Positions 7,531 to 45,918 of a DNA stretch of 64,000 nucleotides are shown here, piece after piece. Made by a program: the position numbers and the translations under genes. The stretch comes from a phage. The notes under the pieces were generated by a model that searched no databases, was not told the DNA's origin, and saw nothing but the letters and a program-made list of their open reading frames with translations. Each line of letters begins with the position of its first letter. The stretch's first letter is position 1. The DNA lies in NCBI GenBank assembly GCA_024672275.1, contig GCA_024672275.1_4536.1. One strand, given 5' to 3'.

Positions 7531-7543
7531 TTGCAATACACTA

Positions 7544-7566
7544 AAACCCCGCCGAAGCTGGGTTAG
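7544..7566 (-). terminator. putative intrinsic terminator (imperfect GC hairpin with TTCG loop, then T-run on minus strand)
   Basis: Minus-strand reading AACCCAGCTTCGGCGGGGTTTTAG immediately 3' of the ssb relic; stem has one mismatch. Confidence 0.3.
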
Positions 7567-7574
7567 TTCTATCA

Positions 7575-7620
7575 TCAGAACGGAATATCGTCGTCGAAAT
7601 CCATCGGAGGCTCATTACCT
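7575..7620 (-). pseudogene. orphan 3' fragment of an ssb gene (encodes ...NEPPMDFDDDIPF-stop)
   Basis: About 45-60 nt with roughly 85-90% identity to the 3' end of the full ssb at 20782..; upstream frame closed by TAA, so no full ORF; lies in the spacer between tail genes. Confidence 0.5.
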
Positions 7621-29797: not shown

Positions 29798-30076
29798 TTA
29801 AAATGGTTCGTTAGTCTCCATCATATATTCTGCTTCTAGTTCTTCCATATGCTTTCTAAATTGGAAAGCAATTTCTGCTACAGTTACATTTAAATCTTTT
29901 TCAAAAACTTCTGTAGAGCCTTCATAAAAACGAATACCGTCAATTAAAAGCCCTCCGTGGTAATCCCAATCACTTTCACGAGAAAGCGGGTTAGGCTCTT
30001 CATAATAGTAATCCACCTCCACAACTAAGGCTTTCCCGTTACGAGTGGTGTATTCAAAATCAAAAGTGTTAATCAT
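29798..30076 (-). CDS. hypothetical protein (92 aa)
   Basis: ORF coupled to the downstream glycosyltransferase gene. Confidence 0.4.
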   Translation of the reverse strand: MINTFDFEYTTRNGKALVVEVDYYYEEPNPLSRESDWDYHGGLLIDGIRFYEGSTEVFEKDLNVTVAEIAFQFRKHMEELEAEYMMETNEPF

Positions 30077-31020
30077 TATAGCTCCTCAAATAAAAGTCTA
30101 CGACGCTCATTCAACACATCAATGTGATAATGAGTCCTGACATACTTAGCTAATGCTAATCCTTTCTCCATGCAAACATCGGGAGCACTTAATAAGTATT
30201 CCGTAATATCTTTCCACTCGGAAGGTGTTTCAGCAAAGAATAACAAATCTTTAAACTCTTGTGTATGATAATTCTCACGAGGAGAACAGATCAAAGGTAA
30301 ACCCTTAGCACCTGCCTCAAGAATTTTAAGATTGCTTTTTGCATTATTAAACACGTTATCAATCAATGGCGCAAGACTGATTTGATGACCATCGTAAGAT
30401 TCCATGTAGTTGGCATATGGTCTTACACCTTCATAAACACAAGTTGGTGCTACATTTTCTCTGATTACAGACCATTCACGACTACTTAAAACTTCAGAAT
30501 CCCTACGAAAACCACATATTGTAAGGTCTTTACCAAAATCGGGCAAGATAGCCAAATCTTGTTTATGTGTTTCACTTCCAGCCCAGACTAATGGAGTTTT
30601 GGAGTAGCGATCACGGGTCAACACAAATTGACCTTCATCGTAAGGAAGTCCATTAGGGATTATGTGCACATTATCATTGTATTGTGAAAGTTCAACTTGC
30701 AAAGCAGGTGTCGTAGTTGTAACAAGATCGCTGTGCTCTAAAAACCATTTTAAATGTTCACGAATACCTGATTCAAAAATACCTTCTAACATGTGTCCTT
30801 TTGGAATAACTAAAGAGTCATCCAAATCCATAACCATTTTAAAGCCTAGGTTTTTAAGGGCTAAAAAGCCCTCTTTACCTTTTGTTGGCACTCCGTTAAA
30901 AACGAAAACGTTGTATTTAGGTTGTGAAGAGAACTGCCTTGAGTAAGGCAGCACTACCCTATGGAAATCGCAGACACTATAATTGATTCCGTTACGATTG
31001 TCAAGAATTATTTGTCCCAT
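30076..31020 (-). CDS. GT-B fold glycosyltransferase, paralog 1 (314 aa)
   Basis: Motif KSNLKILEAGAKGLPLICS resembles the GT1/GT4 EX7E region; clear paralogy to 31028..31975 (shared VVDLDD, WAG..H..DL, ISLAPL(I/V)DN.FNN.KSNLKILEAGAKG). Confidence 0.5.
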   Translation of the reverse strand: MGQIILDNRNGINYSVCDFHRVVLPYSRQFSSQPKYNVFVFNGVPTKGKEGFLALKNLGFKMVMDLDDSLVIPKGHMLEGIFESGIREHLKWFLEHSDLVTTTTPALQVELSQYNDNVHIIPNGLPYDEGQFVLTRDRYSKTPLVWAGSETHKQDLAILPDFGKDLTICGFRRDSEVLSSREWSVIRENVAPTCVYEGVRPYANYMESYDGHQISLAPLIDNVFNNAKSNLKILEAGAKGLPLICSPRENYHTQEFKDLLFFAETPSEWKDITEYLLSAPDVCMEKGLALAKYVRTHYHIDVLNERRRLLFEEL

Positions 31021-31027
31021 ACTTCAC

Positions 31028-31975
31028 CTACAAACTTTCAATAACCTGGCGTCGCAACTCATTTGCATCTGCCAGATTATAATGTGTTCGAACATGTTCA
31101 GCCAAGAACAAGCCACGATCTTCCCGATAGTTTGGATTGCGAAGAAGCTTAACAATTTCGTAATGCCATTCTGCTTTGTTCTCTGCGTAAGCAACAGCAC
31201 GAGCATCTACAGGGTTAAAATAAGGTAATACCTTAGAACAAACAATCGGAATACCCTTTGCTCCAGCTTCTAGGATTTTGAGATTACTTTTACAATTATT
31301 AAAATCATTATCTACCAAAGGAGCTATAGCAATAGCATGACTTTCGTAAACACTCATGTAATTATCTAAATCTTTTACAGCAGCTTTATATTTAGCATTT
31401 GGTAAATTTCTGCGAATCTTAATCCACTCTTGTCCCGTGATGCTCTGCGATGCTTCATATCCCGCAATAGTAAGAAGTTCATCATCGAAAGTATTAGAGA
31501 CTAGTCGTAAATCGGGTTCGTGACTAGCACCGCCAGCCCATACAACAGGGGTACCGGATGAACGATCATTTGACAAAGTGAATTGTCCACTATCAAAAGG
31601 AAGTGCATTTCGGATCACAACAACATTCCTATTTAAGTGACGGATCTTATATGCCAAATATTCTGTAGTCACAATAACCACATCAGCAAGCTTAACCATA
31701 GCTACAATAGCATGAGTGTTTGACTCGTATAGACTTGCTAAATAATGTTCTGGATTAAGTTGGTAGAAATCATCTAAATCTACAACAATCTTAACACCTT
31801 GACGTTTCAAAGATAAAACGTATTCTGCACCTTTAGAGTGGATACGGTTAAACACAACAACATCTTTCTTAGGTTGAAGATTATGGTTGTTAAATGGCAT
31901 AACAATACGATGATAGTCACAACCGCTGTGAGGTTTTGCATCAATTTTTAGTTTAGACCATTTTTTATTTGACAT
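31028..31975 (-). CDS. GT-B fold glycosyltransferase, paralog 2 (315 aa)
   Basis: Same motifs as paralog 1 (KSNLKILEAGAKGIPIVCS); tandem arrangement. Confidence 0.5.
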   Translation of the reverse strand: MSNKKWSKLKIDAKPHSGCDYHRIVMPFNNHNLQPKKDVVVFNRIHSKGAEYVLSLKRQGVKIVVDLDDFYQLNPEHYLASLYESNTHAIVAMVKLADVVIVTTEYLAYKIRHLNRNVVVIRNALPFDSGQFTLSNDRSSGTPVVWAGGASHEPDLRLVSNTFDDELLTIAGYEASQSITGQEWIKIRRNLPNAKYKAAVKDLDNYMSVYESHAIAIAPLVDNDFNNCKSNLKILEAGAKGIPIVCSKVLPYFNPVDARAVAYAENKAEWHYEIVKLLRNPNYREDRGLFLAEHVRTHYNLADANELRRQVIESL

Positions 31976-32648
31976 GTGCTAGTGCCTCCTCATAGGAAAT
32001 TCGGATTTTCCCATTTTTAATATCCTCTAAAGATGCTTTATATTCTTCCCAGTTAATCCCGATAGCAGCTTCTTTCTCTTCTTTTGTCAGATTAGCAAAA
32101 GGCATAGGATTGTTTCCAAAAACATCGTCTGGGTGGATATAAGCCATGATACGAAGTGGACAAGGTGTTGCCTGAATACCATGATTCAAACCAGCAGCTT
32201 TCAAACGGTGTCCCCATTCGGCATCTTCAAAACCATAACCGTGAGTGTAAGGGCGGAAATAACCCATCTTCTCAACAACGGCACGAGAATACATTGCAAA
32301 TTGACACATTGCAAGTTCCCAGAGAATAACTTCTCCTTTGCTTCCAACAACTTTATCTTTGAAGTACTCCGGCATACCAAAGAAATCCCATCCTCCAGAA
32401 ACAGCTTGATCTACAAAGTATGTTTCCCATCCTTCCATGACTGGGTAGCAATCGTCGTCAAAAATAAACCAATAATCATAACCTTCTTCATAAAACTGGT
32501 GTATAAGTTCATTCCTGGCATAAGCTACACCTTTACGGTCTGGATCGTTGAATACTCGAAAATCTGCACGTGGATCTGTTACAAGGTAGTCTTTAAGTGG
32601 GCGGACACCTACAGTGATAACACCCACTCCGATTTTAATATTTTCCAT
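31965..32648 (-). CDS. GT-A fold (family 2-like) glycosyltransferase (227 aa)
   Basis: VAYARNELI, DxD-type FIFDDDCYP, and YGFEDAEW motifs. Confidence 0.55.
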   Translation of the reverse strand: MENIKIGVGVITVGVRPLKDYLVTDPRADFRVFNDPDRKGVAYARNELIHQFYEEGYDYWFIFDDDCYPVMEGWETYFVDQAVSGGWDFFGMPEYFKDKVVGSKGEVILWELAMCQFAMYSRAVVEKMGYFRPYTHGYGFEDAEWGHRLKAAGLNHGIQATPCPLRIMAYIHPDDVFGNNPMPFANLTKEEKEAAIGINWEEYKASLEDIKNGKIRISYEEALAHVK

Positions 32649-32656
32649 TTTCTCTC

Positions 32657-33220
32657 CTAAATAGTTTTACTGTGATCGTGACAGTGTAATAAATGATGTA
32701 TAGACCGTTGAGGATTTGTTTGACCTAATCTGTAAATGTGAAACAGATACATTCCCCGCATCAATCCTAACCTCTTTCCTTTTTCATGTAAAGTGCGAGA
32801 GAAAATTAAGTCGAATTGGATAGATTTTTCTTCAAAAGGAATTTCATTCCACAATGATTTTCTAAAAAGCAAAAAGAAACCTGCCAAAGGTGTTCCGAAA
32901 GGAACTTCTTCAACACTCACTTTATGATATTCTCTTGCAATCTTAGCATATTCTATATGGTTTAGAATATCTGGATCATCGTTAATTTGGTTAGAGAAAA
33001 GCTGATAACCACTGCCTAACCTGTTACAAGTTGCACCTATTACATCAAAAGGCGGGTTTGACATAACAAGCTCTTCAAGCATAGATGGTTGATCAGGTAG
33101 GAGGAACATTGTATCGGTATCTCTTAAACACACCCAACTATCATCTGGAAGAACGGCAATGGCTTCATTGATAGCCTTGCCGATATTTCCTGTCAGATAG
33201 GGAGTAATATAATAAATCAT
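32657..33220 (-). CDS. glycosyltransferase-like protein (187 aa)
   Basis: Possible DxD (CLRDTDTMF) in an N-terminal Rossmann-like context; weak. Confidence 0.35.
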   Translation of the reverse strand: MIYYITPYLTGNIGKAINEAIAVLPDDSWVCLRDTDTMFLLPDQPSMLEELVMSNPPFDVIGATCNRLGSGYQLFSNQINDDPDILNHIEYAKIAREYHKVSVEEVPFGTPLAGFFLLFRKSLWNEIPFEEKSIQFDLIFSRTLHEKGKRLGLMRGMYLFHIYRLGQTNPQRSIHHLLHCHDHSKTI

Positions 33221-33236
33221 TCTCCCCTCCGTTATA

Positions 33237-33428
33237 TTAACTGTCGGCTACAATCCCGCGTTTAATCATTTCCTGTTGGATTTGGATGACACGATCTCGT
33301 GCTTCCATGTATTCTTTAAAAGATTCTTGAAGATGGTCACGAGCTACGTCTCGTAGCTTAATCAGTTTGTCGTTTGTCACTTCTTGAAGAGAGATTTCGC
33401 CAGTTTCATTGGTCCCAAGCGTTTTCAT
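33237..33428 (-). CDS. small hypothetical protein (63 aa)
   Basis: ORF only. Confidence 0.3.
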   Translation of the reverse strand: MKTLGTNETGEISLQEVTNDKLIKLRDVARDHLQESFKEYMEARDRVIQIQQEMIKRGIVADS

Positions 33429-33636
33429 TTACAACCTCCTTAATAGCTACTGCACAGTTCTTACAAATACATTGACCTTTGTTCTTAGAAATTTCAATGT
33501 AAGGTTCATTTTCGTTTTCTCCGCGTCGTGAGTCGTATATTACTGTATTGAAGCAGACAACGCAAATGTTTTTAATAACGACATATTTTTGCACTTTCTG
33601 TTTAGTGCGAAAATTGACTTCAATGACTTCTCCCAT
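33406..33636 (-). CDS. small zinc-ribbon protein (start adjusted to Met17 of track ORF)
   Basis: CVVC...CICKNC pattern; adjusted ATG overlaps the upstream stop by 1 nt. Confidence 0.35.
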   Translation of the reverse strand: MGEVIEVNFRTKQKVQKYVVIKNICVVCFNTVIYDSRRGENENEPYIEISKNKGQCICKNCAVAIKEVVNENAWDQ

Positions 33637-33920
33637 CAATGAATCTCCCCTAAAATGTTGTTTTGAGACATTACTGCGGAGCATTCTACAGCATCATGAG
33701 TCCTTGCAAAACGCTCCCACAACACAGCATCTACTTTAAGAACCATACAAGGATAAATACTGTCGTTGATCATATCAATGCTATATTTATCTACATCGTT
33801 TTCATCTTCCATAAACAAAGTAGCGTATGCTTCTAAATGCTTACGGGTGTAGTATACATCCTCTTCGGTAAGACCGACAACCAGGTAACTTGCTACAACA
33901 ACAGTATTATCTTCTTGCAT
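33636..33920 (-). CDS. hypothetical protein (start adjusted to Met22 of track ORF)
   Basis: SD AGGGGAG precedes the internal ATG; removes the overlap with the hydrolase gene. Confidence 0.35.
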   Translation of the reverse strand: MQEDNTVVVASYLVVGLTEEDVYYTRKHLEAYATLFMEDENDVDKYSIDMINDSIYPCMVLKVDAVLWERFARTHDAVECSAVMSQNNILGEIH

Positions 33921-33921
33921 T

Positions 33922-34443
33922 TTAACTCCCCTTTGGTAGATAGAAACCATGCACTTTATCTCGATAAACAAGACGCATATCACGTTCCCAGTGTGTCTTT
34001 ATATTCCGTTTCTTGAAATATAGAGCACCTTTAGTAACATCTAAAACAGACCGCAATTCAGGAAAATGTTTCTCTAGATAAAGTAAACGCTCCGCTATTG
34101 CTTTTGCTTCCTGCCACTTATCTTTCTCTGTTACGTTAAAAGTTTTCGCATATGAGAATTGTCCTTTCTGGAACAAGACTCCTCTGACTGTGTTAGGGAA
34201 GTAGGTATCATTTCTTCTGTTGATTACCACATTCCCAACGGCATTCATTCCTTTTTTACCCAGACCGCGACCTTCTGCGTAAATTGCACAAGCTAATAGA
34301 ATTTTATCATTATATTGCTTTGTACATTTGTGAACTACTTTAGCGGTTTTTACGTTTGCAGCTTCGGCTTTCGCCACAACAGGTGTAAATGTAAAAGCAG
34401 TTAAGGATAGTAACGCAACTGTTACAAAGTTTTTTATCAGCAA
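33922..34443 (-). CDS. secreted cell wall hydrolase, SleB/CwlJ (Hydrolase_2)-like (173 aa)
   Basis: N-terminal signal peptide MLIKNFVTVALLSLTAFTFTPVVAKA; Hydrolase_2-like core LLACAIYAEGRGLGKKGMNAVGNVVINR...VLFQKGQFSY. Confidence 0.6.
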   Translation of the reverse strand: MLIKNFVTVALLSLTAFTFTPVVAKAEAANVKTAKVVHKCTKQYNDKILLACAIYAEGRGLGKKGMNAVGNVVINRRNDTYFPNTVRGVLFQKGQFSYAKTFNVTEKDKWQEAKAIAERLLYLEKHFPELRSVLDVTKGALYFKKRNIKTHWERDMRLVYRDKVHGFYLPKGS

Positions 34444-34504
34444 ATTTTGCCTCCTTTTTAAGTTAACGAATTTCTAGTATAACACGATAGAGGCTTTATT
34501 GCAA

Positions 34505-34524
34505 GAGGGGGATTTCTCCCCCTC
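34505..34524 (-). other. stem-loop GAGGGGGA-TTTC-TCCCCCTC between terD and the hydrolase gene
   Basis: Perfect GC palindrome, near-identical to the hairpin at ~15930; no T-tract. Confidence 0.3.
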
Positions 34525-34542
34525 AAAATCATTTGTTAATTA

Positions 34543-35145
34543 TTATGGACATTCATACCATTCTTTTTTACCACCGAAGGCCATCACCACATCACAAATA
34601 TCCAGACCAGCTTTACCTACACCATATGCTTTCAGCTTCCATTCCCCATCTTCACGAACCAAGGAAGCCACGTGGCAGATTGTGTTGCCAGCTACTTCAG
34701 GAGCCAGGAAGTCAAAATCCAGAATTTCCACATTGCGCTCGGAGTCAAAGATTTTAAGCATACCTTCAGAAGCATGACCAAAACGTTTCAGACCTGTATC
34801 ATCATCAATGGTCAGAACAAAGGCAATCTCTTGTGCATCAGGAGAGATTTTAGCCAGAGTAATATCAATCTGCTCCATGCTGCCAGTTCCATCACGAACA
34901 TCGTCACCAGCGAAGGTAGAACGTTCAGGATCAAACTTGTTAGCATAGCAAACCAGGTGACGTGCAGACAGCATTTCAGGATTGCCAGCGGCATTGTGAC
35001 GACAAACCAGTGCACTTACATCCAGATCCAGTTTAGAATCAGATTTCCAAGAGAATTCCAGGCGCAGTTCTTTCAGAGCCGGAGCAACTTTCTTCAGGGA
35101 AATTTTTTCGCTAGAGCCTTTTTTCAGGGAAATTTTATCAGTCAT
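34543..35145 (-). CDS. terD: TerD-domain stress-response protein (200 aa)
   Basis: Whole-length match to the TerD pattern: ISLKKG...ISLKK N-terminus, DLDVSALV, GDDVRDGTG, FVLTIDDD, GEWKLKAYGVGKAGL. Confidence 0.85.
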   Translation of the reverse strand: MTDKISLKKGSSEKISLKKVAPALKELRLEFSWKSDSKLDLDVSALVCRHNAAGNPEMLSARHLVCYANKFDPERSTFAGDDVRDGTGSMEQIDITLAKISPDAQEIAFVLTIDDDTGLKRFGHASEGMLKIFDSERNVEILDFDFLAPEVAGNTICHVASLVREDGEWKLKAYGVGKAGLDICDVVMAFGGKKEWYECP

Positions 35146-35160
35146 CTTTTGTCTCCTCTA

Positions 35161-35430
35161 TTATTTAAGTGTAATACCAGTTACAGTCAATTCTACTTCC
35201 AAAAGCTTAGATGTGTTTTGGATTGATACTAATTGTGCATGATGGTTTAGTTCTACAGCAGAACAATCATTTTCCCCATCATCTACTTTTAAATAAACAA
35301 TGATTTCACTAAGGTCTAAACCATTTTCGTCAAATGCATTTTCATAGACGAAAGTATCTCCTACATCCAAATCTTTAATGGTAAGGCATCGTTTATTTAC
35401 TTTTTGCTCATCAATTTCGAAGTTTAACAC
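35161..35430 (-). CDS. small hypothetical protein, paralog of 36452..36796 (89 aa)
   Basis: Shares F(N/E)I(Q/D)E(E/Q)K...DL..G.TF.Y..A.E..GLD and C-terminal V(E/D)L(T/E)VT(G/N)ITLK with its paralog. Confidence 0.4.
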   Translation of the reverse strand: MLNFEIDEQKVNKRCLTIKDLDVGDTFVYENAFDENGLDLSEIIVYLKVDDGENDCSAVELNHHAQLVSIQNTSKLLEVELTVTGITLK

Positions 35431-35659
35431 TTCTTCCTCCTAATGTTATCTCCGGTTTGTATATACGAAGAATTATAGCATTTTCATTTTCTTTGTCAAC
35501 CCATTCTTCATAATCGGGCCATACATGAATCTCTACTCTACTTACAATATCTTCCATTCGCACAGTCCCAATGAAATACTCTTTGAGACTGCGCATAATG
35601 AAAGCTTCTCTCTCGCGCCAATAATTTTCTATGACTTGAGAGGCAAGCTCGTCGATCAT
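35411..35659 (-). CDS. hypothetical protein (82 aa)
   Basis: ORF coupled between the vWA gene and the small paralog. Confidence 0.35.
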   Translation of the reverse strand: MIDELASQVIENYWREREAFIMRSLKEYFIGTVRMEDIVSRVEIHVWPDYEEWVDKENENAIILRIYKPEITLGGRSVKLRN

Positions 35660-36450
35660 TTTTTAGCACCTACTTTAACAACCCACTCTCCGAACTCTTC
35701 AGATAAGAGTTTGTCATAAAGCTCTGAATCTGTCAAGTCTAAATCTTTAATGCCAATAAAACCAACATTATCATAAGCATTTGCCAGTTCTTTCAGGAAG
35801 CCGAACTTCTCATTACCAACGCCAACCATGAACCAATAAATAGGTTTATTCTTATTCTCTTCGATAAGACGACGAACAGCACTAGGATCACCATTCTCAC
35901 CATCCGTCTGGAAGAATACAACACCAGGGGTAACGTCAGCACCTGGTTCAGATACAGCTACAACCTTTTCACGCTCTACAGATACTGTTTCAGTTTTACC
36001 AAGCAGACGATTAAAGAAGCCTTTCTTTGGAGCCTCTTCTTGTACCACTTGTTTAGTGGTAATATATTTGGTAACAGTGCCAAAATACTCATCGTAGATA
36101 TCTGCCATTACAGGGGCGTAATTTGTTCCACCTCCGATACGAACATTACGCATACATTTACCAACATAGTCATCGTAAACGTCTGCTGTTGCTGGAGTAA
36201 GCTCTTGAGAACTCGTATTGAAGGCCCACATGTCAATTTGTTCATTATCGTCGAACAGCATACCAAAAGGAAGCAGTTTACCTACAAAATCACTCACTAC
36301 CCCACGAGCATATAGACCATGCATACTACCAGAAATATCTAAAGCACATGCTACACGAAGAACAATCTTACCTTCATTCAGGTTCTTATTCTTTTTCAGA
36401 GAGAAAGCAAGGTTTTCTTGACGTTTTTTCAGGCTGATTTTCTCGGACAT
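35656..36450 (-). CDS. von Willebrand factor A (vWA) domain protein, TerY-like (264 aa)
   Basis: MIDAS motif DISGSM, plus GGGTNYAP and FFQTDGENGD elements. Confidence 0.7.
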   Translation of the reverse strand: MSEKISLKKRQENLAFSLKKNKNLNEGKIVLRVACALDISGSMHGLYARGVVSDFVGKLLPFGMLFDDNEQIDMWAFNTSSQELTPATADVYDDYVGKCMRNVRIGGGTNYAPVMADIYDEYFGTVTKYITTKQVVQEEAPKKGFFNRLLGKTETVSVEREKVVAVSEPGADVTPGVVFFQTDGENGDPSAVRRLIEENKNKPIYWFMVGVGNEKFGFLKELANAYDNVGFIGIKDLDLTDSELYDKLLSEEFGEWVVKVGAKK

Positions 36451-36451
36451 A

Positions 36452-36796
36452 TTATTTCTCCTTCTTAAGTGTAATGTTGGTAACTTCTAAATCTACTTCC
36501 ACCATATTTGTATCTGGCGGGATGCAATGAGTATATCCTCGTTGTGCTAGTGATCCATTAATACAGATCGCACTGTTTGTGGAATTTTTAATGAACACCA
36601 AGTTACGGTAGGTATCCAACCCTGCGTCTTCATAGGCATCATAATACATGAATGTGGCCCCTATGCCAAGATCTTCGAAAGCAATAGGTAAATCCTGACA
36701 CTTTTCTTCTTGAATATTGAATCTAAACACGCATACCTCCTCTACCAATTTTGAAGCCCAAATCGTAAGCTTCCTTAGTGATCTTTTGTAACTCAC
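36452..36796 (-). CDS. small hypothetical protein, paralog of 35161..35430 (true start probably downstream of track start)
   Basis: Conserved region aligns with the 89-aa paralog; the track ORF overlaps the upstream gene by ~74 nt. Confidence 0.35.
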   Translation of the reverse strand: MSYKRSLRKLTIWASKLVEEVCVFRFNIQEEKCQDLPIAFEDLGIGATFMYYDAYEDAGLDTYRNLVFIKNSTNSAICINGSLAQRGYTHCIPPDTNMVEVDLEVTNITLKKEK

Positions 36797-37286
36797 TTAT
36801 AGGAAGTGTTACAAGAGGATCATCTTCTTCAATTTCCATCTTGTCATCTTCTGTTTCAATGAGAGTATTATGCACTTTGTGATAAGGGTTGTCAACACGT
36901 TTAAACTTATTCTTTTCTGTGCTGAAAAAACAATCTGGATCTTCTTCACCATCACCCCAACCTTGGTTAGGATCTCCGTCAGATTGTTCTGTAGGGATTT
37001 CACCTGTAAAGTACTCTTCCAGCACCATAGCAATACCGTCCCTTGGATTTGAGGAATGCATTAAATCACAAACCTTACCCCAATCCATAGCCCATTCGAA
37101 CCGTTCACGAACGCCATTTTCATCCTCCTTTCCAGAGAAAACACAACCATAACTATCATAGTTGCCATACATCTCTTCAATAACAACACCGTCCTTCAAA
37201 AGAAAGAGATAACAAGGTGATCCGTCGAAAGAAGTAGAAAGGGCAGCTTTGCCCGATTCCTTACACAAAAAACTAAAACAACCCAT
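36723..37286 (-). CDS. hypothetical acidic protein (187 aa)
   Basis: ORF; D/E-rich; no motif recognised. Confidence 0.4.
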   Translation of the reverse strand: MGCFSFLCKESGKAALSTSFDGSPCYLFLLKDGVVIEEMYGNYDSYGCVFSGKEDENGVRERFEWAMDWGKVCDLMHSSNPRDGIAMVLEEYFTGEIPTEQSDGDPNQGWGDGEEDPDCFFSTEKNKFKRVDNPYHKVHNTLIETEDDKMEIEEDDPLVTLPISELQKITKEAYDLGFKIGRGGMRV

Positions 37287-37684
37287 TACAAACCCTCCTT
37301 CAGATTATCAAGAGCTACAGTGGTTTCACAAAAGTCTCCATACGTTTTATGATGTTCTAGAAAAGCTTCAGGTCCACCCCAATCATTATCTTGTGTATTC
37401 CAGCCATCAATAAAAGCATCTTCAATGATTGTGATCAGTTCCTGTCGAGTCAACGTAATGGTATCAGGTTTCTGCGTAGTTTCCACACGGAACCCTGGTT
37501 CTTCATAAAAACCTTTAGTTACAATGGACTCTAACTCTTCTGCATCACAGAGGAAGTAGCCACAAAGATAACACCAACCGTCATCATCTTTCATTACTTC
37601 ATAAACTTCACCACTTGCTAACTTGATGAAAAGAGTAGGGTCTGTTACTGTAAGTTTTAAAAGAATACCTGTTGGATTATACAT
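37286..37684 (-). CDS. hypothetical protein (132 aa)
   Basis: ORF with ATGA coupling to the downstream gene. Confidence 0.4.
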   Translation of the reverse strand: MYNPTGILLKLTVTDPTLFIKLASGEVYEVMKDDDGWCYLCGYFLCDAEELESIVTKGFYEEPGFRVETTQKPDTITLTRQELITIIEDAFIDGWNTQDNDWGGPEAFLEHHKTYGDFCETTVALDNLKEGL

Positions 37685-37849
37685 CTTCTTCCTCCTCTAA
37701 AATATGGAACCCGTAATTACAATAATCCTGAAAGGTTTCGTGTGCAAGATCTTCTATATCCTCTTGAGACATATCATCTTCAATTTCGATATCCACAACC
37801 TCATTGCATCCACACCAAGCAGTTTCAATATTCACTCGTAATATTTTCA

Positions 37850-38047
37850 TTACTCCTCCTCCTCATTGAAGTCAATATCTGCAAGGAGTTCGAATTTACG
37901 GAAGTTACGACAACCTTCATAAATATAACAATCACGACAAACTGCTAGAACACTTGGGGGATATATGCCTCCCATCGGCGCGAATCGTTTTTCGTCATCA
38001 TAACGGACACCAATGTCCTCATCAATTATATAGATACGGATTCTCAT
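37850..38047 (-). CDS. small hypothetical protein, Cys-containing, acidic C-terminus (65 aa)
   Basis: ORF overlapping the telA-like stop (ATGA). Confidence 0.3.
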   Translation of the reverse strand: MRIRIYIIDEDIGVRYDDEKRFAPMGGIYPPSVLAVCRDCYIYEGCRNFRKFELLADIDFNEEEE

Positions 38048-39156
38048 TTACCAAGCCCTCGTTTCACAGCAGCTACCATCCCGTCTTCCAGAGATTGAAC
38101 TTCGTTAATATAATCAACACGAGCAGCACGGGCTTCCGTATTGATGCGGTTAGTTTCTTCCAACATCTTAACCAAGTTTTCCTGATCGTGACGCAGAGTT
38201 TCAATATCCAACACTTGACGGTTAGCCAGTGCTGCTGCTTCGATCTGATTCTGTGTGGCAAGATCGCTACCCAGTTTAATTGCCAGGTTAAATTCATCAA
38301 GAACGTTATTCTGCGTCTCTGCTGCTTTCATTTGACGTAAGCTCTCGATATACATTGAGAAGTTAGCAGAGTAAGCAGGAATAACATTATTTACTATATT
38401 ACGCGCAGATCGCATTAAGCTTGCAGAAACTTTTTGCATACCTTGTACACGCGGTCCCATTTGGACACACAGTAGGCGCAATGCCTTTAAATCTGCAATA
38501 CGAATCTCCAGAAGATCCAAAGTATCTCGGATCACTTGTCGCTGTTCTACTGCATCTTCTGGAAGAGCAGCCAAAGCTTGTTCTTCTTTTTCATAGGTTG
38601 CTGTTAGAAGCTGCATATCTCGGTTCAAACTTGCAGCATATTGTCCAATAGCTTGATGTAGCTTTTCAAGATATACCAAGGAATCTTCTTCTTTGCGAAT
38701 ATCCATTTGAAGGTTCTTTACCAACTCTTCAATACGGTTATTAACATTATCAAACTCCCCAAACAGGTCTTCTTTCATACCCATAACTTTTTTAATGAGT
38801 TTAGTAATACCCTTGCTTTGTTTAATAGAGTTTGGATCAAGTTGTTTTGCCTGTTTAATCAAAGCTGTGAGTCGTTCACTCATCTGATCGCCTTGATTAC
38901 TACGTTGATGTTTTAACACCTCGGCATTCAAGGAACGCAAGGTTGTTCCTGCCTCTGCCCCAATCTCTTCAATCTCTTGTCGGGTCATAGAAGGCAAAAC
39001 TGGAACTTCTTGCGGTGCCGCTGGTGCATAAACAGGACTGGCATCTAACACGCTTGGAGCGAATACAGATTTACTTGCATCTGTTGTTGCAGCGAATACA
39101 CTCATTTCAGACTTCTTCTGACCACCAGTAGCTGCTTTTAAAAATGGACTTGTCAT
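38044..39156 (-). CDS. TelA-like (toxic anion resistance / KlaA family) protein (370 aa)
   Basis: Size and long helical, charged composition consistent with TelA; co-localised with TerD/TerC/vWA; no sharp motif, so the call leans on context. Confidence 0.5.
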   Translation of the reverse strand: MTSPFLKAATGGQKKSEMSVFAATTDASKSVFAPSVLDASPVYAPAAPQEVPVLPSMTRQEIEEIGAEAGTTLRSLNAEVLKHQRSNQGDQMSERLTALIKQAKQLDPNSIKQSKGITKLIKKVMGMKEDLFGEFDNVNNRIEELVKNLQMDIRKEEDSLVYLEKLHQAIGQYAASLNRDMQLLTATYEKEEQALAALPEDAVEQRQVIRDTLDLLEIRIADLKALRLLCVQMGPRVQGMQKVSASLMRSARNIVNNVIPAYSANFSMYIESLRQMKAAETQNNVLDEFNLAIKLGSDLATQNQIEAAALANRQVLDIETLRHDQENLVKMLEETNRINTEARAARVDYINEVQSLEDGMVAAVKRGLGK

Positions 39157-39743
39157 TCTTCATTCTCCTCTTCTGCATCTCTTATATATGGTGAAACACC
39201 GTACTCTTTAGCTACTTTAACCCAATCATCCCATTTATACAACCATAATTTTCCTTCAGTTCCTTCTTTATCTGATTTCAACCACATGTTAGGTTGCTTG
39301 CCTGGGTACATGCGATTAGGTTTACGATTATAACCTCTAACACATCTTGTCGCAAACCTATCTACCAGAACAAGAACATATTTATATTCGTGGTTCAACG
39401 GCTCTTTGGAAGTGGCTTTAGGATTAGCCCCTAACTCTGCTGCCAGTTTTTGCCAATGAGCACCGTGTCTACTAAACTTACCCATACAACCATCAATAGC
39501 ATGAGCAATTTCGTGCTTCATTGTATCCACGATCATGTCTCTTGTGGAGTTCTTATGCAAGTGCCAATTTACAACAACAATTTTATCTCGGTAGTTGCAC
39601 CAACCGAAAGAGTTATTCACTTTGTTTCTAACACAAGCTTTATATCCTGCTTCATGTAACATGTTGTAGTAAACAGGAAAATCTTCTTTTATTTCCTGCA
39701 TCACTTCCCACCACAAGAGTTGCAAGTCTCTCTCGGTATGCAT
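39153..39743 (-). CDS. SprT-like zinc metalloprotease domain protein (196 aa)
   Basis: HExxH in KHEIAHAIDGCMGKFSRHGAHW. Confidence 0.5.
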   Translation of the reverse strand: MHTERDLQLLWWEVMQEIKEDFPVYYNMLHEAGYKACVRNKVNNSFGWCNYRDKIVVVNWHLHKNSTRDMIVDTMKHEIAHAIDGCMGKFSRHGAHWQKLAAELGANPKATSKEPLNHEYKYVLVLVDRFATRCVRGYNRKPNRMYPGKQPNMWLKSDKEGTEGKLWLYKWDDWVKVAKEYGVSPYIRDAEEENEE

Positions 39744-39746
39744 AAC

Positions 39747-40340
39747 TTACACCTTAAAAGCGAAATGCGTGGTCGTGGCTTCAAAATCAGGGCCAGATAA
39801 ACTTGCACTGAAATCTGAAATATTTGTAATTAAAAAGCTTTTATGCATACCTAACACAGCCACGCTTTCAATATCTTCTACTAACATTTCAATCATGTTA
39901 GAAACATGGCTGAACGTATAGTTTTGTTTTTTGATGGTGTAGAAAGAAAGACTCCCACCTGCTGTATAAGATACCTCTTCAAAATCTTTAATCGTATATT
40001 GTGTGCCATCAGTAAAGAAAATGGTAGCTTTATTAGTAGCACGTTTCTTGTTTTTTGGTCCTTTTTTACGTTTACTGCGAGTAGGCAAACCGTTTGGGAA
40101 CACCGTAGCTACAAATTCTTCAGGGGAAACCTCCTTACCGAAATCATAACCGTAAGAAACAGCGTCTATAAACTCGTCGTCTTCATTTTTAAAATAATGA
40201 AAATAGGGCCAATTTGAGAGATTATCAAGCATCTTATGCTCATCCACAGCAGAGAACGTATCTCTCAAAGCACGTGTGATTTGTAAAGCATTAGGCAAAC
40301 TTTTAACACCTGTAATGGAAGTACGAATAGAAATTGTCAT
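39747..40340 (-). CDS. hypothetical protein (197 aa)
   Basis: ORF; no motif recognised. Confidence 0.4.
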   Translation of the reverse strand: MTISIRTSITGVKSLPNALQITRALRDTFSAVDEHKMLDNLSNWPYFHYFKNEDDEFIDAVSYGYDFGKEVSPEEFVATVFPNGLPTRSKRKKGPKNKKRATNKATIFFTDGTQYTIKDFEEVSYTAGGSLSFYTIKKQNYTFSHVSNMIEMLVEDIESVAVLGMHKSFLITNISDFSASLSGPDFEATTTHFAFKV

Positions 40341-40354
40341 TGTTTTTCTCCTTA

Positions 40355-40792
40355 TTAACGTCGCTTGCTACGAGATGAACTCTTTTTACTTAAAGGGCTA
40401 TTGTAAGATTTACGAGTTGTATAGCTACTATTTGTTTTAAAAGTCTGTCTCGGCTTTTCATAAGTTTTTATCTCTTGTTTAGGCTTACCATAAAAATTAG
40501 TTTTCGGTTTAGGTGTATTATAATGCTTATTAATAATCGTTCTGTTATCGTTATAATCCCCACTGCTACGATTACTACCGCCACTCATCATATGCCCTAA
40601 CAACATACCTGTAGCAAACTCACCAACACCGCTACTACTAGAACCGCCACCATTGTTGATAATAGTTGTATCTCCGTCAGATCCTTGTTGAGCGTATTGT
40701 TGAGGAGGTTGTTGGTATTGTGCAGGATTTGTTTCATCCTCGCAAGCTGTTAAAAAGATACAACCAATTAAAATCAGGGCTAGTTTTTTCAT
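40355..40792 (-). CDS. lipoprotein, G/S/N/K-rich (start adjusted to Met26 of track ORF)
   Basis: Signal peptide + lipobox MKKLALILIGCIFLTAC; low-complexity GGGSSSSG region. Confidence 0.5.
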   Translation of the reverse strand: MKKLALILIGCIFLTACEDETNPAQYQQPPQQYAQQGSDGDTTIINNGGGSSSSGVGEFATGMLLGHMMSGGSNRSSGDYNDNRTIINKHYNTPKPKTNFYGKPKQEIKTYEKPRQTFKTNSSYTTRKSYNSPLSKKSSSRSKRR

Positions 40793-40979
40793 ATTTGCTT
40801 TCCTCGTTTTGGCTATTAATACATCTGTGTTTGAAATCTCCAGAGAAGCAATAAAGTTGCTCTCCATCTCGGTATAAACTCACTTTACTGCCGTTGATTA
40901 CGCTTGTCAATACAAAAATTACAACAAACAACCCTATTGCAAAACAGATATTTTCAAACACAACCAACAAGTATTTCAT
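40734..40979 (-). CDS. possible small membrane protein (81 aa)
   Basis: Hydrophobic helix ICFAIGLFVVIFVLTSVI; overlaps the lipoprotein gene start region, so it is uncertain. Confidence 0.25.
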   Translation of the reverse strand: MKYLLVVFENICFAIGLFVVIFVLTSVINGSKVSLYRDGEQLYCFSGDFKHRCINSQNEESKYEKTSPDFNWLYLFNSLRG

Positions 40980-41326
40980 TTTAAAAATACCTCATCATCA
41001 GTTTCATTATCCCAGAAGAACAAATCCCAACCATTCGGATCATTCCATTTGGCTGCTGGAGAAGTCCATATTTGTTCGATATCAATATTCAAAACTTCAC
41101 CGTTTCGTTTTGAAACAGCTTTAGTTAATTCCCAACGAGACACAGGCTCCACTTCCCCTGAACCGCTCCCACAACAAGCTACCACATTAGGAGGCAAATT
41201 AATTGGATCTTTGGTCACAATCATAACGCTTACCCCAGGGTAAACTTTTGAAAGATAATCTAAAACGTAATCCACATCGCCAGATAAATCCCAAATAAGT
41301 TCTTGAATTTCATCAAAATTATTCAT
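40976..41326 (-). CDS. hypothetical protein (116 aa)
   Basis: ORF with SD AGGAGA. Confidence 0.4.
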   Translation of the reverse strand: MNNFDEIQELIWDLSGDVDYVLDYLSKVYPGVSVMIVTKDPINLPPNVVACCGSGSGEVEPVSRWELTKAVSKRNGEVLNIDIEQIWTSPAAKWNDPNGWDLFFWDNETDDEVFLK

Positions 41327-41337
41327 AAGTCTCTCCT

Positions 41338-41362
41338 ATAAAATAGCCTCCCGAAGGAGGCT
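41338..41362 (-). terminator. terminator hairpin AGCCTCC-TTCG-GGAGGCT + AUUUUAU after terC
   Basis: Minus-strand GC stem with 4-nt loop followed by a U-rich tract, immediately before the next RBS. Confidence 0.45.
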
Positions 41363-41368
41363 CATCTA

Positions 41369-42343
41369 TTAAACAGCAGCTTCTTCTTTTTCAGGGAAGA
41401 TAAAGCTTGCAATAACACCAAGAGCTAATGTGCCTAGAACAATCATCAGACTTACGTTAGGGGAAATATCATGCGGGAAGAATGACCACTTGGCATGAAG
41501 TGTTTCACCGAACGGGTGATACATAAGTTTAGCACCAACAAACACCAGAACCACAGCAACAGCTTTCTCTAAGTGAACCAGATATTTCACAGCTACACTT
41601 AACACAAAGAAAAGTGCACGTAAACCAAGAACAGCCATCAGCATTGCAGAATAAACTAGCAGAGGTTCTTGTGTCACACCGATCACAGCCGGAACTGAAT
41701 CAAAAGAGAAGACAATATCTGTAAGCTCAATAACAAACACACAAAGAAGAGCAGGAGTTGCATATTTAATACCATTCTTAATGGTAATGAACTTTTCACC
41801 ATCTAGTGCATTGTGCACAGGCAGAACTTTACCTACTAAACGAACAGCCCAATGCTTAGAGTAATCAATATCCTCTTCTTCGTCACCACCTTTGATGATA
41901 GCCACGGCAGACCAAGCTACAATCAAACCGAACAACACTTGGACCGACCAATGAAGGTTAAACAAAGCGGTCCCTGCTGCAACAAAAATACCTCGGAAGA
42001 CAATGGCTCCTGCAATCCCCCAAAGTAAAATCTTATGTTGGAGATGTGTGCTCTTAATTCCAAAGCTTGCAAAAATTGCCATGAATACCATCAGGTTATC
42101 TACAGAAAGACTCTTTTCCAACACATAGCCACTTAGGAAAAGCGCGGCAAACTCTTTACCATGTTCTACCCAAATGAATGCGTAATATCCTAAAGCTAAA
42201 GCAATCCAAAAAACAGACCAAAGCAAAGCAGATTTAATTCCAATTTCTTTATTCTCTTTATGACCAAAGAAATCGATACCAATAGACAATGCCAAAATAC
42301 TAACTAAAACAACTACATCAATAATTGGGAAACCGAGTTGCAT
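41369..42343 (-). CDS. terC: TerC-family integral membrane protein (324 aa)
   Basis: Multiple TM helices; TerC signature LEKSLSVDNLMVFMAIF and FSFDSVPAVIG. Confidence 0.8.
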   Translation of the reverse strand: MQLGFPIIDVVVLVSILALSIGIDFFGHKENKEIGIKSALLWSVFWIALALGYYAFIWVEHGKEFAALFLSGYVLEKSLSVDNLMVFMAIFASFGIKSTHLQHKILLWGIAGAIVFRGIFVAAGTALFNLHWSVQVLFGLIVAWSAVAIIKGGDEEEDIDYSKHWAVRLVGKVLPVHNALDGEKFITIKNGIKYATPALLCVFVIELTDIVFSFDSVPAVIGVTQEPLLVYSAMLMAVLGLRALFFVLSVAVKYLVHLEKAVAVVLVFVGAKLMYHPFGETLHAKWSFFPHDISPNVSLMIVLGTLALGVIASFIFPEKEEAAV

Positions 42344-42422
42344 TCTTTTCTCCTCTCTTTGCGGGGAATTATTCCCCGCTTTATGTGATATATCTTACTC
42401 TTTTTAAGAACTATGTCAACAC

Positions 42423-42644
42423 TTATTTTGTTGAATGAGAGGAAAAGATTCCTCGTAATACCGCCAGAATAAACGAAACACAAACCACGGTCCAGAAGGT
42501 TACTGGGACAGTGATATCTGCATGACCCATAACTTCAGCAACATAGTTGTAAGCCAGCAACAGTAACCAAGCTGGAATCAAACTAAGCATAAAAGCAATA
42601 ACAAAAAAGCTTACCACCGCAACAATACCTGCAAAAACACCCAT
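42423..42644 (-). CDS. small membrane protein, 2 TM (73 aa)
   Basis: Two hydrophobic helices. Confidence 0.4.
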   Translation of the reverse strand: MGVFAGIVAVVSFFVIAFMLSLIPAWLLLLAYNYVAEVMGHADITVPVTFWTVVCVSFILAVLRGIFSSHSTK

Positions 42645-42656
42645 ACTAATCTCCTC

Positions 42657-43130
42657 TTAAAGTTTATAAATAGTCACATCGTGACCTGTTTTTACTAAAG
42701 TTTCTTCAATCATCACTTGGATGATAGCCCAATTACCTCCAGCATATCCAGCGCCAATCATAGGTAAGCCGATCTTACATTTTTGGTCACGGAGAAGCAA
42801 ATCGTTAGCCATAGCTATTAGTGCATCGTAAAGTGCATCATAGTCCAACTGACGACCTTTAGCATTATATCCGTAACGGTATTGCCCGTATAGATTATAT
42901 ACCAAAGGGTCTGATTGTTCGTCTGGCACCCCTAAACTAAAAGAACCTAACTTACTTTGATCACCAGCCATTGTGTCTAAATCTGCCGCATATGCATAAG
43001 GGAATGCTCGTTTAATTTGCGGAGCAATTCCTGCTCCCATATTACACATACAATTGCAACAATGAGCAATAACAGTTACTTCACCTGCTTTAGCGGCATC
43101 AATAAGATTACCTGTTTTCATTTTAAGCAT
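42657..43130 (-). CDS. macro domain protein (start adjusted to Met23 of track ORF)
   Basis: VIAHCCNCMCNMGAGIA...IGLPMIGAGYAGG fits the macro fold; SD AAGGAG before the adjusted ATG. Confidence 0.6.
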   Translation of the reverse strand: MLKMKTGNLIDAAKAGEVTVIAHCCNCMCNMGAGIAPQIKRAFPYAYAADLDTMAGDQSKLGSFSLGVPDEQSDPLVYNLYGQYRYGYNAKGRQLDYDALYDALIAMANDLLLRDQKCKIGLPMIGAGYAGGNWAIIQVMIEETLVKTGHDVTIYKL

Positions 43131-43143
43131 TTTTAGCTCCTTA

Positions 43144-43971
43144 TTACAGAATGTGTTGTTTTGTGTAACGATCCAAGAATTCAAAGTTTTCAACATACTT
43201 TGAAATTCGGTTGTAACCTTCTCCCAAACATCCGAAGAAAAGTTGCTCTACATAGTAGTGTGGCAATTGGCTAAGAATGATTTTGAAGTCTTCATGATTT
43301 TGGCCCATAAGATACTTAATAGGACGAACAAGACACTGTGCATCACGTTCTTCATTAATCATTTTAACAAACGCTTCTGGTGTATTAATGTAGTTAAAAT
43401 TCAGTTTAGCTTCGGTATCTGCTTGATTACCTTCATATTTTGCAAAATACAAGAAGTAAACATCATTTTTAACTTGATTTTCATCAAGGATCTCAATCAG
43501 TTTGTCTTCATGAGTTCCAGTGATATTTACATCATCAATAAACACAAGCTTCTTATCACCCCAGAATTCTTTGTTGCAGTAGAATGTATCCCCATCAATA
43601 AGTTTCTTACGACTAGCTTTATCCAAGAAACCATAATCGTTGATATAGCTAACTTTACGATGAATAATATCTAGTTCTGCTGAACAACCTTGATCATATT
43701 GTGATTGCAACATATTAAAGTAATTAATAAAATGATCTGTCATCATTGTTGCAGCATTATGCACATGGTTGTAAGGAGAAGGAATGATAACAAATTGTTC
43801 CCCAATATGTTTCATTGCCACTTGAGCAAAAAACTGAAGTGCCAATTCTTTACCCATACGACGCGCAGCCTGGTTACTACCAAATTTCAATTTTGAATAG
43901 TCTTTGATATCAAAAGTAGCAGTTTCCAGGTCATCAAATTTATTTGCAAAAATTTGAGTTTGATTACGCAT
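43144..43971 (-). CDS. phosphoribosyltransferase (type I PRTase)-like protein (275 aa)
   Basis: PRPP-binding motif KKLVFIDDVNITGTHEDK. Confidence 0.5.
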   Translation of the reverse strand: MRNQTQIFANKFDDLETATFDIKDYSKLKFGSNQAARRMGKELALQFFAQVAMKHIGEQFVIIPSPYNHVHNAATMMTDHFINYFNMLQSQYDQGCSAELDIIHRKVSYINDYGFLDKASRKKLIDGDTFYCNKEFWGDKKLVFIDDVNITGTHEDKLIEILDENQVKNDVYFLYFAKYEGNQADTEAKLNFNYINTPEAFVKMINEERDAQCLVRPIKYLMGQNHEDFKIILSQLPHYYVEQLFFGCLGEGYNRISKYVENFEFLDRYTKQHIL

Positions 43972-44620
43972 TTACAATTTCTCCTCTTTTAAGTTTCTCT
44001 AGTAAGTCGTTAGGGTTCTTAATATGACAGAAGTTAAATCCTAAGTCAACACATTTTCCATCATATTCTTCACTATCGCCTACGTGCAACACTTCGTGCC
44101 CTAACAGAGGGATCGGAGAATACGTGAGCGTGCGAGCAAAGAATCGCGGATCTGGTTTACAAAGTAAAGCTTCATCCGAAAAATGGGTGAACTCAAAACA
44201 ATTCCAACTATCAAACTTACAAGCACGACGCAGGATATCCCCTGATATGAAGTTGGTGTTACTCTTAATACTCAAATCATAACGCCCCGAAAGATACAGC
44301 AAGTACATCGGCAGATCTACGGCTACGTGTGGTGGAAACTTAAGGAACCACTGTTCACACTCGAAACGAAGCTTTGCAGACTTCCAAGGCGTTATCCCAA
44401 GTTCAGAACCAAGTCTTTCCCAGGCGTATGCTGCACACTCGGCTCGGCCTTGAAGTGCTGCATTATCCAGTTCCTTTTTGATCTTTTTATAAGCTACTCT
44501 TGCTTCCACTTCCGTAATATCTCCATATTTTGCGATAGTCCAGGCTCGCATGTCTGCGTAATTGGAGTTTGCTGTGATCAGTGTGTTCCATACATCAAAA
44601 GAGATATGTTTAATAGTCAT
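43964..44620 (-). CDS. HAD-superfamily hydrolase-like protein (218 aa)
   Basis: Motif I-like ISFDVWNTL, motif IV-like LHVGDSEEYD. Confidence 0.5.
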   Translation of the reverse strand: MTIKHISFDVWNTLITANSNYADMRAWTIAKYGDITEVEARVAYKKIKKELDNAALQGRAECAAYAWERLGSELGITPWKSAKLRFECEQWFLKFPPHVAVDLPMYLLYLSGRYDLSIKSNTNFISGDILRRACKFDSWNCFEFTHFSDEALLCKPDPRFFARTLTYSPIPLLGHEVLHVGDSEEYDGKCVDLGFNFCHIKNPNDLLEKLKRGEIVNA

Positions 44621-44621
44621 A

Positions 44622-45227
44622 TTAAGCCCACCATGCGTCTAAGTTAAGATTACTGTCCACTACCACTTGTTCTATGTGGTAGCCTTTTATCTGTATCCCA
44701 CTGTTCAAGAGCATCTCATACGCTTCATTGAAACGCAACTTATCTTCTGCGGAATATAAGCGAGCATTATAAAATCGGTAATCAATTTCTTCAGCATTAG
44801 AAGAAATACGGAAGAAGTTTGTTTCTACTTCGGGGTCACTTGCTGAAGTCTTAATGTGAACTTCTCCATAATTTTCTTTACTTAGATCCATGAAAAGAAC
44901 ACAGGCAACATGTTTAAACATTCGTTCCAGTTTGTAACGAACAACATTGAAACCTGCATTCTCAAGTTTTTCTACACACTGCAACATTAAAGTAGTGTCG
45001 AGATCGCTTTGATACTTTGTTAACATACGATCACGTTGAGACTTTGTATCCCGATGTAAATCAATTGTTGTGCATTTGGCACCAATAATCTTAGCTGCTT
45101 TCATCAACTCTTCAGAACTAACGTTAGATAAAGTAAGATGAAAATGAGCTTTCCACACTTTTTTAGCAGGGACACCAAAAGATTTATCCCCACTATTCGG
45201 CATGTTGACTACTACACTATGTTGCAT
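44622..45227 (-). CDS. hypothetical protein (201 aa)
   Basis: ORF; no motif recognised; adjacent to the HAD/PRTase genes. Confidence 0.4.
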   Translation of the reverse strand: MQHSVVVNMPNSGDKSFGVPAKKVWKAHFHLTLSNVSSEELMKAAKIIGAKCTTIDLHRDTKSQRDRMLTKYQSDLDTTLMLQCVEKLENAGFNVVRYKLERMFKHVACVLFMDLSKENYGEVHIKTSASDPEVETNFFRISSNAEEIDYRFYNARLYSAEDKLRFNEAYEMLLNSGIQIKGYHIEQVVVDSNLNLDAWWA

Positions 45228-45242
45228 TACTTATCTCCTCAC

Positions 45243-45467
45243 TTAAAATGGAAGTCTTTGAAGTTCATCTCCTCCGATATCAAGTAATTTAGCAACATCT
45301 CGATCAGAAAGCAACTCTTTTCTTTGTAAAATATCCACAAGGGTTGCAAGAATGTCCTTAACGTCCCGATCACTGTTCTTCAAAAGTTCTCCTGCCGTCC
45401 CTACTCTATCTCCTATAGCAAAATATGTAACCATGAAACCTCCTAAGTTAATCTGATTGCCAACCAC
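45243..45467 (-). CDS. hypothetical protein (74 aa)
   Basis: ORF only. Confidence 0.35.
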   Translation of the reverse strand: MVGNQINLGGFMVTYFAIGDRVGTAGELLKNSDRDVKDILATLVDILQRKELLSDRDVAKLLDIGGDELQRLPF

Positions 45468-45918
45468 TTGCCGTTTTGGTCCATAATCTTTGATTATCTG
45501 ACCCTCTGAAAGGTTTTGTAGTTGGATTGTTTATTTCATACTTTCCGTCTACAATAATGTCAACAAGATTTTTAATATACAAAGGCACTTCCTCAAAAGT
45601 ATACCCTGTATATACCATTATATCTTTGCTTGACCCATAAACGTCTCTAACCTTTTCTATAAGGTTTTTAACATTGTAAATATTCTGTGGATCTAATGGC
45701 TCTCCTCCTAAAATTGTTAAACCTTTTACAAACGGTCTTGACAAATCTTTTAAAACTTGCTCTACATTTTCGTGAGTGAACGGTTTCCCATAAGAATAAG
45801 ACCAGGCTTTTTGGTTAAAACAGCCACGACAACCGTGGCTACAACCACTAACCCAGAGGGAGCACCTAACTCCCTCGCCATTAATAAGATCTACAGGTTC
45901 ATATCCTGCAAAATTCAA
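45448..45918 (-). CDS. nrdG: anaerobic ribonucleoside-triphosphate reductase activating protein (radical SAM) (156 aa)
   Basis: CxxxCxxC cluster CSHGCRGC near the N-terminus; overlaps nrdD. Confidence 0.8.
   Translation of the reverse strand: MNFAGYEPVDLINGEGVRCSLWVSGCSHGCRGCFNQKAWSYSYGKPFTHENVEQVLKDLSRPFVKGLTILGGEPLDPQNIYNVKNLIEKVRDVYGSSKDIMVYTGYTFEEVPLYIKNLVDIIVDGKYEINNPTTKPFRGSDNQRLWTKTASGWQSD

Follow-up and report, generated by a model that had tools for sequence, protein, structure and literature searches.

The window analysed here is a stretch of 64,000 nucleotides of phage DNA. The 4 kb around the region of interest are 98.5-98.8% identical to the Escherichia phages anhysbys and phAPEC8 and to many other Phapecoctavirus genomes (Stephanstirmvirinae). 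Two small genes, here termed sA and sB, lie together with Ter genes and neighbouring genes, all on the minus strand and within a stretch densely filled with small genes (Table 1). Their placement directly upstream of two different Ter genes, as claimed in an earlier note on this DNA, was found as described: sB ends 1 nt before the ATG of the gene for the vWA-TerF-like protein, and sA ends 15 nt before the ATG of terD. TelA and a TerC/Alx membrane protein are encoded in the same phage Ter cluster. The vWA-TerF-like protein contains a complete MIDAS metal-binding motif, with D38-x-S40-x-S42, T109 and D183 invariant in the vWA alignment; vWA domains usually bind a protein ligand at this site. A search of Rfam over positions 30000..46000 gave no match.

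Table 1. Features of the Ter cluster and its surroundings in the window.
Feature	Position	Strand	Length	Matches and remarks
Run of four predicted glycosyltransferase-like genes	30076..33220	-		just downstream of endolysin
TerD-domain protein	34543..35145	-	200 aa	PF02342, E=3.2e-28; immediately downstream of sA
sA	35161..35430	-	89 aa	PHROG 11278; copy after vWA, directly upstream of TerD; GGAGG, then GTG start
82-aa gene	35411..35659	-	82 aa	PHROG 22387; between vWA and sA; contains the sA-TerD promoter-like site; PsgM04F orthologue
Perfect sigma-70 consensus TTGACA-N16-TATAAT with upstream TG	35472..35499	-		inside the 82-aa gene, ~40 nt before the sA start
vWA-TerF-like protein	35656..36450	-	264 aa	PF10138, E=1.3e-37; immediately downstream of sB
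sB	36452..36730	-	92 aa	sA paralogue; copy before vWA; GTG start at 36730
187-aa gene	36723..37286	-	187 aa	PHROG 14928; upstream of sB, 3' end overlaps the sB start; contains the sB-vWA promoter-like site
Sigma-70-like site TTGACA-N17-CATAAT (11/12)	36867..36895	-		~137 nt before the sB start
132-aa protein	37286..37684	-	132 aa	PHROG 14200 in C-terminal half only (residues 67-132)
TelA	38044..39156	-		PF05816, E=3.2e-33, and phrog_5890; same phage Ter cluster
SprT-like zinc metalloprotease	39153..39743	-		PF10263, E 5e-9
TerC/Alx membrane protein	41369..42343	-		TIGR03718, E=2.3e-95; same phage Ter cluster

Several features of the surrounding genes were recorded. The SprT-like gene overlaps the start of the TelA gene by 4 nt, and the same overlap, with a gene of 591 nt, is found in phage PsgM04F. 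The equivalents of the glycosyltransferase-like genes are annotated as glycosyltransferase folds in phi92 (gp163-166) and as glycosyltransferases in PsgM04F. The 187-aa gene has equivalents in phi92 (gp175) and phAPEC8 (gp061). The N-terminal half of the 132-aa protein gave weak matches to SH3 models of Pfam (E 0.015), while the half matching PHROG 14200 is encoded as a stand-alone ORF of 72-83 aa directly before vWA in two related contigs (L013, 3286-3504; L014, 3092-3343), both of which are without the 187-aa gene and without sB. The vWA protein (MSEKISLKKRQENLAFSLKK, 36450..36380, minus strand) and TerD (MTDKISLKKGSSEKISLKKVAP, 35145..35080, minus strand) have a common N-terminal K-I-S-L-K-K motif, which is repeated in both and hints that the vWA-TerF-like protein starts with a TerD-type first strand.

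The open reading frame first listed for sB (36452..36796, 114 aa) is simply the longest possible reading, and its first 22 codons run over the 3' end of the 187-aa gene. The start of sB is placed at the GTG at 36730, which overlaps the stop of that gene, on account of a GGAGG Shine-Dalgarno sequence ahead of it, the 279-nt length of the equivalent phAPEC8 gp062, the 90-92 aa of the homologues and a PHROG match covering positions 1-92 of 92. Further equivalents are phAPEC8 gp065 for sA and phi92 gp174 for sB, and sA orthologues are located at 7295-7576 in PsgM04F (L003) and at 4509-4802 in contig L012. A reading of one or both frames as non-coding artefacts draws on the overlap of those 22 codons. 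Against it stand a dN/dS of 0.16-0.22 for sB compared to its orthologues in PsgM04F, phi92 and Klebsiella phage 05F01, homologues down to about 25% identity that keep the hydrophobic pattern, a confidently predicted fold, a Shine-Dalgarno sequence on both genes and the annotation of both, as hypothetical proteins, in many phage genomes. For the 89-aa and 92-aa versions the artefact reading is refuted, its probability being practically nil, and of the longer frame only the first 22 codons are a frame artefact. Judged by these signatures of selection and translation, sA and sB are real genes.

The two proteins are paralogues, as the earlier note had proposed. BLASTP aligned sA and sB without gaps over 89 residues (29 identities, 33%; E=2e-15), and their Smith-Waterman score of 126 is far above chance when compared to 5000 shuffled controls (mean 25.9, sd 4.8, maximum 57; z=20.8). 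The common core described before (F-x-I, DL..G.TF.Y, GLD and V.L.VT.ITLK) coincides with conserved columns of the family alignment. The proteins are small and acidic and evolve faster than vWA (24-26% vs 50% identity between the window and contig L005). In a neighbour-joining tree calculated without bootstrap, the copies preceding vWA group together in a single clade, which lies inside a set of several deep lineages made up of copies following vWA. This suggests that the position before TerD is ancestral and that sB arose by a later duplication. The genes upstream of the two copies, encoding 82 and 187 aa, are unrelated to each other (E 0.055); the duplication thus left out the upstream gene.

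Both proteins belong to PHROG 11278 (sA, E=2.6e-45, residues 1-89 vs 1-89 of 92; sB, E=5.2e-49, residues 1-92 vs 1-92 of 92), which was matched by 16 of 16 members of the family alignment. The earlier statement that they cannot be assigned to a known family therefore holds in part: they fall into this PHROG of unknown function, and nothing with a known function matches. In Pfam, no match was obtained for any of the 16 family members at E<=1, and searches of NCBIfam, PADLOC and the sequences of the PDB gave no informative match for sA or sB. Kinship with TerD was not found either, neither as a match to PF02342 in Pfam nor by hhalign against the TerD of the window (probability 0.3%). Likewise, membership in the core Ter components (TerB, TerC, TelA and vWA-TerF/TerY) was not detected with Pfam, NCBIfam or PADLOC, and the family was not found in bacterial ter/tel operons. 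Word-indexed searches with each paralogue reached close relatives only, whereas an exhaustive profile search reached distant ones; the latter yielded only about 20 stand-alone small homologues, with a phage context for every contig read.

An AlphaFold model of sB built from 8 close sequences was unusable (pLDDT 45), while the 16-sequence alignment gave a pLDDT of 82.5 and a pTM of 0.70, with five short strands and one helix. The predicted fold of sA and sB is putatively a small SH3-like beta-barrel, and SH3-like small beta-barrels (the SH3-like domain of ribosomal protein L2, FeoA, the C-terminal domain of DtxR, KOW, Tudor and HspQ) are candidates for the closest known folds. A Foldseek search of the predicted model against the PDB returned nothing significant. 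In BFVD the best match to the sB model was the sA paralogue of phAPEC8 (TM 0.81), and all but two of the further matches are unnamed or uncharacterised small phage proteins. The aspartate of the GLD motif is replaced by Asn or Ser in two members of the wider family; it is not invariant, which weakens a simple model of this residue as ligand of the vWA MIDAS, and the model was dropped as a firm claim.

Profile searches also matched many repeat proteins of 1000-5700 aa, with E down to 1.5e-25, which carry He_PIG, Big_9, DUF11, DUF7507 and HYR domains. These matches would fit a reading of sA and sB as stand-alone Ig-like beta-sandwich domains, kin to the repeats (He_PIG, DUF11 or HYR) that make up giant surface proteins. 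However, the scores add up 4-22 short stretches (often 16-50 residues, containing the G-x-T-F-x-Y hairpin) over several unrelated repeat families, none of the relatives of sA and sB gave a direct match to these Pfam models, and the predicted model is a barrel with a helix, not a sandwich. An Ig-like origin is accordingly very improbable, and the matches to giant proteins were rejected after the Pfam check as motif-level noise. Summed hairpin matches of this kind are a trap for automated annotation.

Both small genes are preceded by promoter-like sites located within the coding region of the respective upstream gene (Table 1). The site ahead of sA is the only exact match to TTGACA-N16-TATAAT in the 64-kb window, where 0.09 would be expected. 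Its hexamers are exact in PsgM04F (L003), L012 and L029, with 6 of the 16 spacer bases differing in the alignment of L003 and L012, and the site ahead of sB is conserved in phi92 (L001), PsgM04F, L012, L020 and L029; in both cases the conservation is partly confounded by coding constraint. The two sites suggest two early units, one comprising sB and vWA and the other sA and TerD, each behind its own promoter. A C-terminal tail, K-(K/E)-E-K, is present only in the copies preceding vWA. In sB it reads KKEK and is encoded by AAGAAGGAGAAATAA (36452..36466, minus strand), which contains the Shine-Dalgarno sequence of vWA, the latter starting 1 nt after the sB stop. The tail may therefore be kept for translation of vWA and not for a function of the protein.

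In the phage collection, the family was found in 127 records, mostly named Escherichia phages (Phapecoctavirus, Justusliebigvirus), about 65-70 of which carry two copies. All carriers with a classification in the taxonomy lines read belong to the Stephanstirmvirinae. The vWA-TerF-like protein was found in 219 phage records, with 106 Escherichia records recovered in both the family and the vWA searches, and the host-genus counts are consistent with linkage of the family to vWA and TerD. Some records of Campylobacter, Acinetobacter and Pseudomonas phages are near-identical in this region to E. coli Phapecoctavirus and Justusliebigvirus genomes, which suggests host mislabelling or contamination. 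IMG/VR contigs with vWA were found by a scan seeded with the vWA alignment.

The proposed link to the vWA and TerD genes was borne out, the small family standing beside one or both of them in every context read, down to about 25% identity. In the searched loci, 21 of 21 family matches on the contigs inspected are no more than two genes away from vWA and/or TerD. The arrangement itself varies. PsgM04F and L012 have the two-copy layout of the window; phi92 has only gp174, which is immediately followed by vWA (gp173) and this in turn by TerD (gp172); and L009 carries two tandem copies between vWA and TerD. Distant homologues (23-31% identity) come from unrelated sequencing runs, and each of them is on a phage contig on which vWA-TerF-like, the small protein, TerD and endolysin follow one another in this order. 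One dedicated partner per Ter component, as the earlier note had it, is consequently not a rule, since phi92 has only the copy before vWA, others place one or two between vWA and TerD, and the family is missing from many phages.

At a relaxed threshold of E<=10, the family was absent from 13 fetched loci (9 distinct) with vWA or with vWA and TerD (L013, L014, L017-L019, L021-L023, L024, L025, L026, L027 and L028). They comprise contigs in which vWA abuts TerD (L013, L017-L019, L021-L024), contig L014, which ends just after vWA, Klebsiella phage KP13-16, and the compact TelA-vWA-TerC-TerD cassettes of Caulobacter phages, Pseudomonas phage Cygsa01 and Rhizobium phages. L013 and L014 are close relatives, with vWA proteins 65-68% identical to that of the window. 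Inspected by eye, the small ORFs beside vWA in the family-less loci are unrelated to sA and sB. About 92 of the 219 vWA-bearing phage records gave no tblastn match to the family. Among bacterial genomes, scanned at one per species, no bacterial homologue was revealed; the only match was a phage contig inside a metagenome-assembled genome. Co-occurrence is one-sided: in the inspected contigs the family is confined to the surroundings of vWA or TerD, whereas these two genes are often present without it. Its scattered occurrence and the lack of bacterial homologues argue against a core Ter component, and on this distribution the family is classed as an optional, lineage-specific accessory gene of one phage group and not as an obligate partner of vWA or TerD.

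The tie of sA and sB to the vWA and TerD genes is a matter of observation as regards position, and it probably extends to transcription. In the proposed explanation, sA and sB are phage-restricted paralogues of PHROG 11278 of about 90 residues, predicted to form small SH3-like beta-barrels. The family would have originated among the Ter genes of Stephanstirmvirinae-like myophages, where it would have undergone duplication, relocation and loss. The copy following vWA, just before TerD, appears ancestral, and the copy preceding vWA forms a derived clade. Each copy is probably made together with the product of its downstream Ter gene, sB with the vWA-TerF-like protein and sA with TerD, from transcripts that are most likely early and synthesized by the host RNA polymerase. 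The most likely role would be that of an optional subunit, accessory to the phage Ter apparatus, which would bind the soluble part made up of vWA and TerD and tune or scaffold it. The adaptor or chaperone activity suggested in the earlier note is hypothetical. A putative binding of sA and sB to vWA or TerD is plausible, given that the vWA protein keeps a complete MIDAS and that the bacterial TerF fusion implies that TerD and vWA act together. For the explanation as a whole, i.e. lineage-specific paralogues made together with Ter genes and putatively serving as optional accessories of vWA/TerD, we estimate about an even chance. A bolder version, in which the small barrels are non-covalent bridges joining the separate phage vWA and TerD into a TerF-like complex, with each diverged copy specialised for one partner, is rather unlikely.

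The main competing explanation assumes inherited linkage only, with sA and sB being ordinary small early phage proteins (e.g. for host takeover or anti-defence) that were duplicated locally and have no tie to vWA or TerD. All carriers have the same broad gene order (TelA ... vWA ... TerD, endolysin) and represent one broad phage group, so that the linkage could be mere inheritance. The patchy presence, with several losses even among close relatives, fits this view as well, as do weak links of the family to phrog_7832 (7 of 16 members, best E 1.3e-5) and phrog_10911 and the structural neighbours found in BFVD in Erwinia, Proteus, Pseudomonas and other coliphages, which together point to a candidate larger set of small barrels unconnected with Ter. 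However, vWA or TerD remains the neighbour even where the gene differs in exact position and copy number and in the other genes around it, and its coding region overlaps or abuts those of the Ter genes, sB even encoding the ribosome-binding site of vWA. Inherited linkage alone is considered less likely than not. It is improbable that the proteins are regulators or inhibitors which hold the phage vWA or TerD inactive until needed or block host Ter proteins, for which inhibition of some phages is known. Small, acidic proteins that evolve fast compared to vWA are typical of modulators, and the apparent early expression from predicted host-type promoters would suit such a function; to our knowledge, E. 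coli K-12, the usual laboratory host, has no ter operon, which counts against it. The data presented here do not separate a regulator from the accessory subunit favoured above.

The genes themselves were already annotated as hypothetical and their PHROG was catalogued, whereas the linkage of the paralogous pair to vWA and TerD in a phage Ter cassette appears to be new. In the papers searched on Ter genes in phages, neither the small proteins nor their association with vWA and TerD were found described, and the entry of PHROG 11278, of which both window proteins are members, gives neither a function nor a link to vWA or TerD. As a small, easily expressed protein linked to vWA and TerD, each family member is a candidate partner for binding and could help to reveal how the two assemble or what controls them. 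What is gained is a lead that can be tested, together with a better annotation of about 130 phage genomes, with no new mechanism indicated; if the small barrels did act as bridges, they would provide a simple handle to reconstitute and dissect the soluble part of the Ter system.

The role of Ter proteins in phage resistance and their use by phages have been discussed (PMC7824862). An abbreviated phage Ter cassette consisting of TelA, a TerF-type vWA protein, TerC and TerD has been described in jumbo and related phages (Iyer et al. 2021, PMC7824862) and in phiKp34 (PMC8386662). The window resembles this cassette in that TelA, the vWA-TerF-like protein, TerC/Alx and TerD are all encoded on the same strand and span no more than 8 kb. 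Unlike the compact cassettes of Caulobacter, Rhizobium and Pseudomonas phages, which are without the small protein, the cluster of the window is spread out and contains the small-protein copies and other small genes. In bacterial TerF, a TerD domain and a C-terminal vWA domain are fused in one protein, and PF10138 is described as a vWA found in the TerF C terminus. Compared to bacterial TerF, the same two domains are present in the phage, but they are encoded by separate neighbouring genes, with the predicted small barrel encoded beside or between them.
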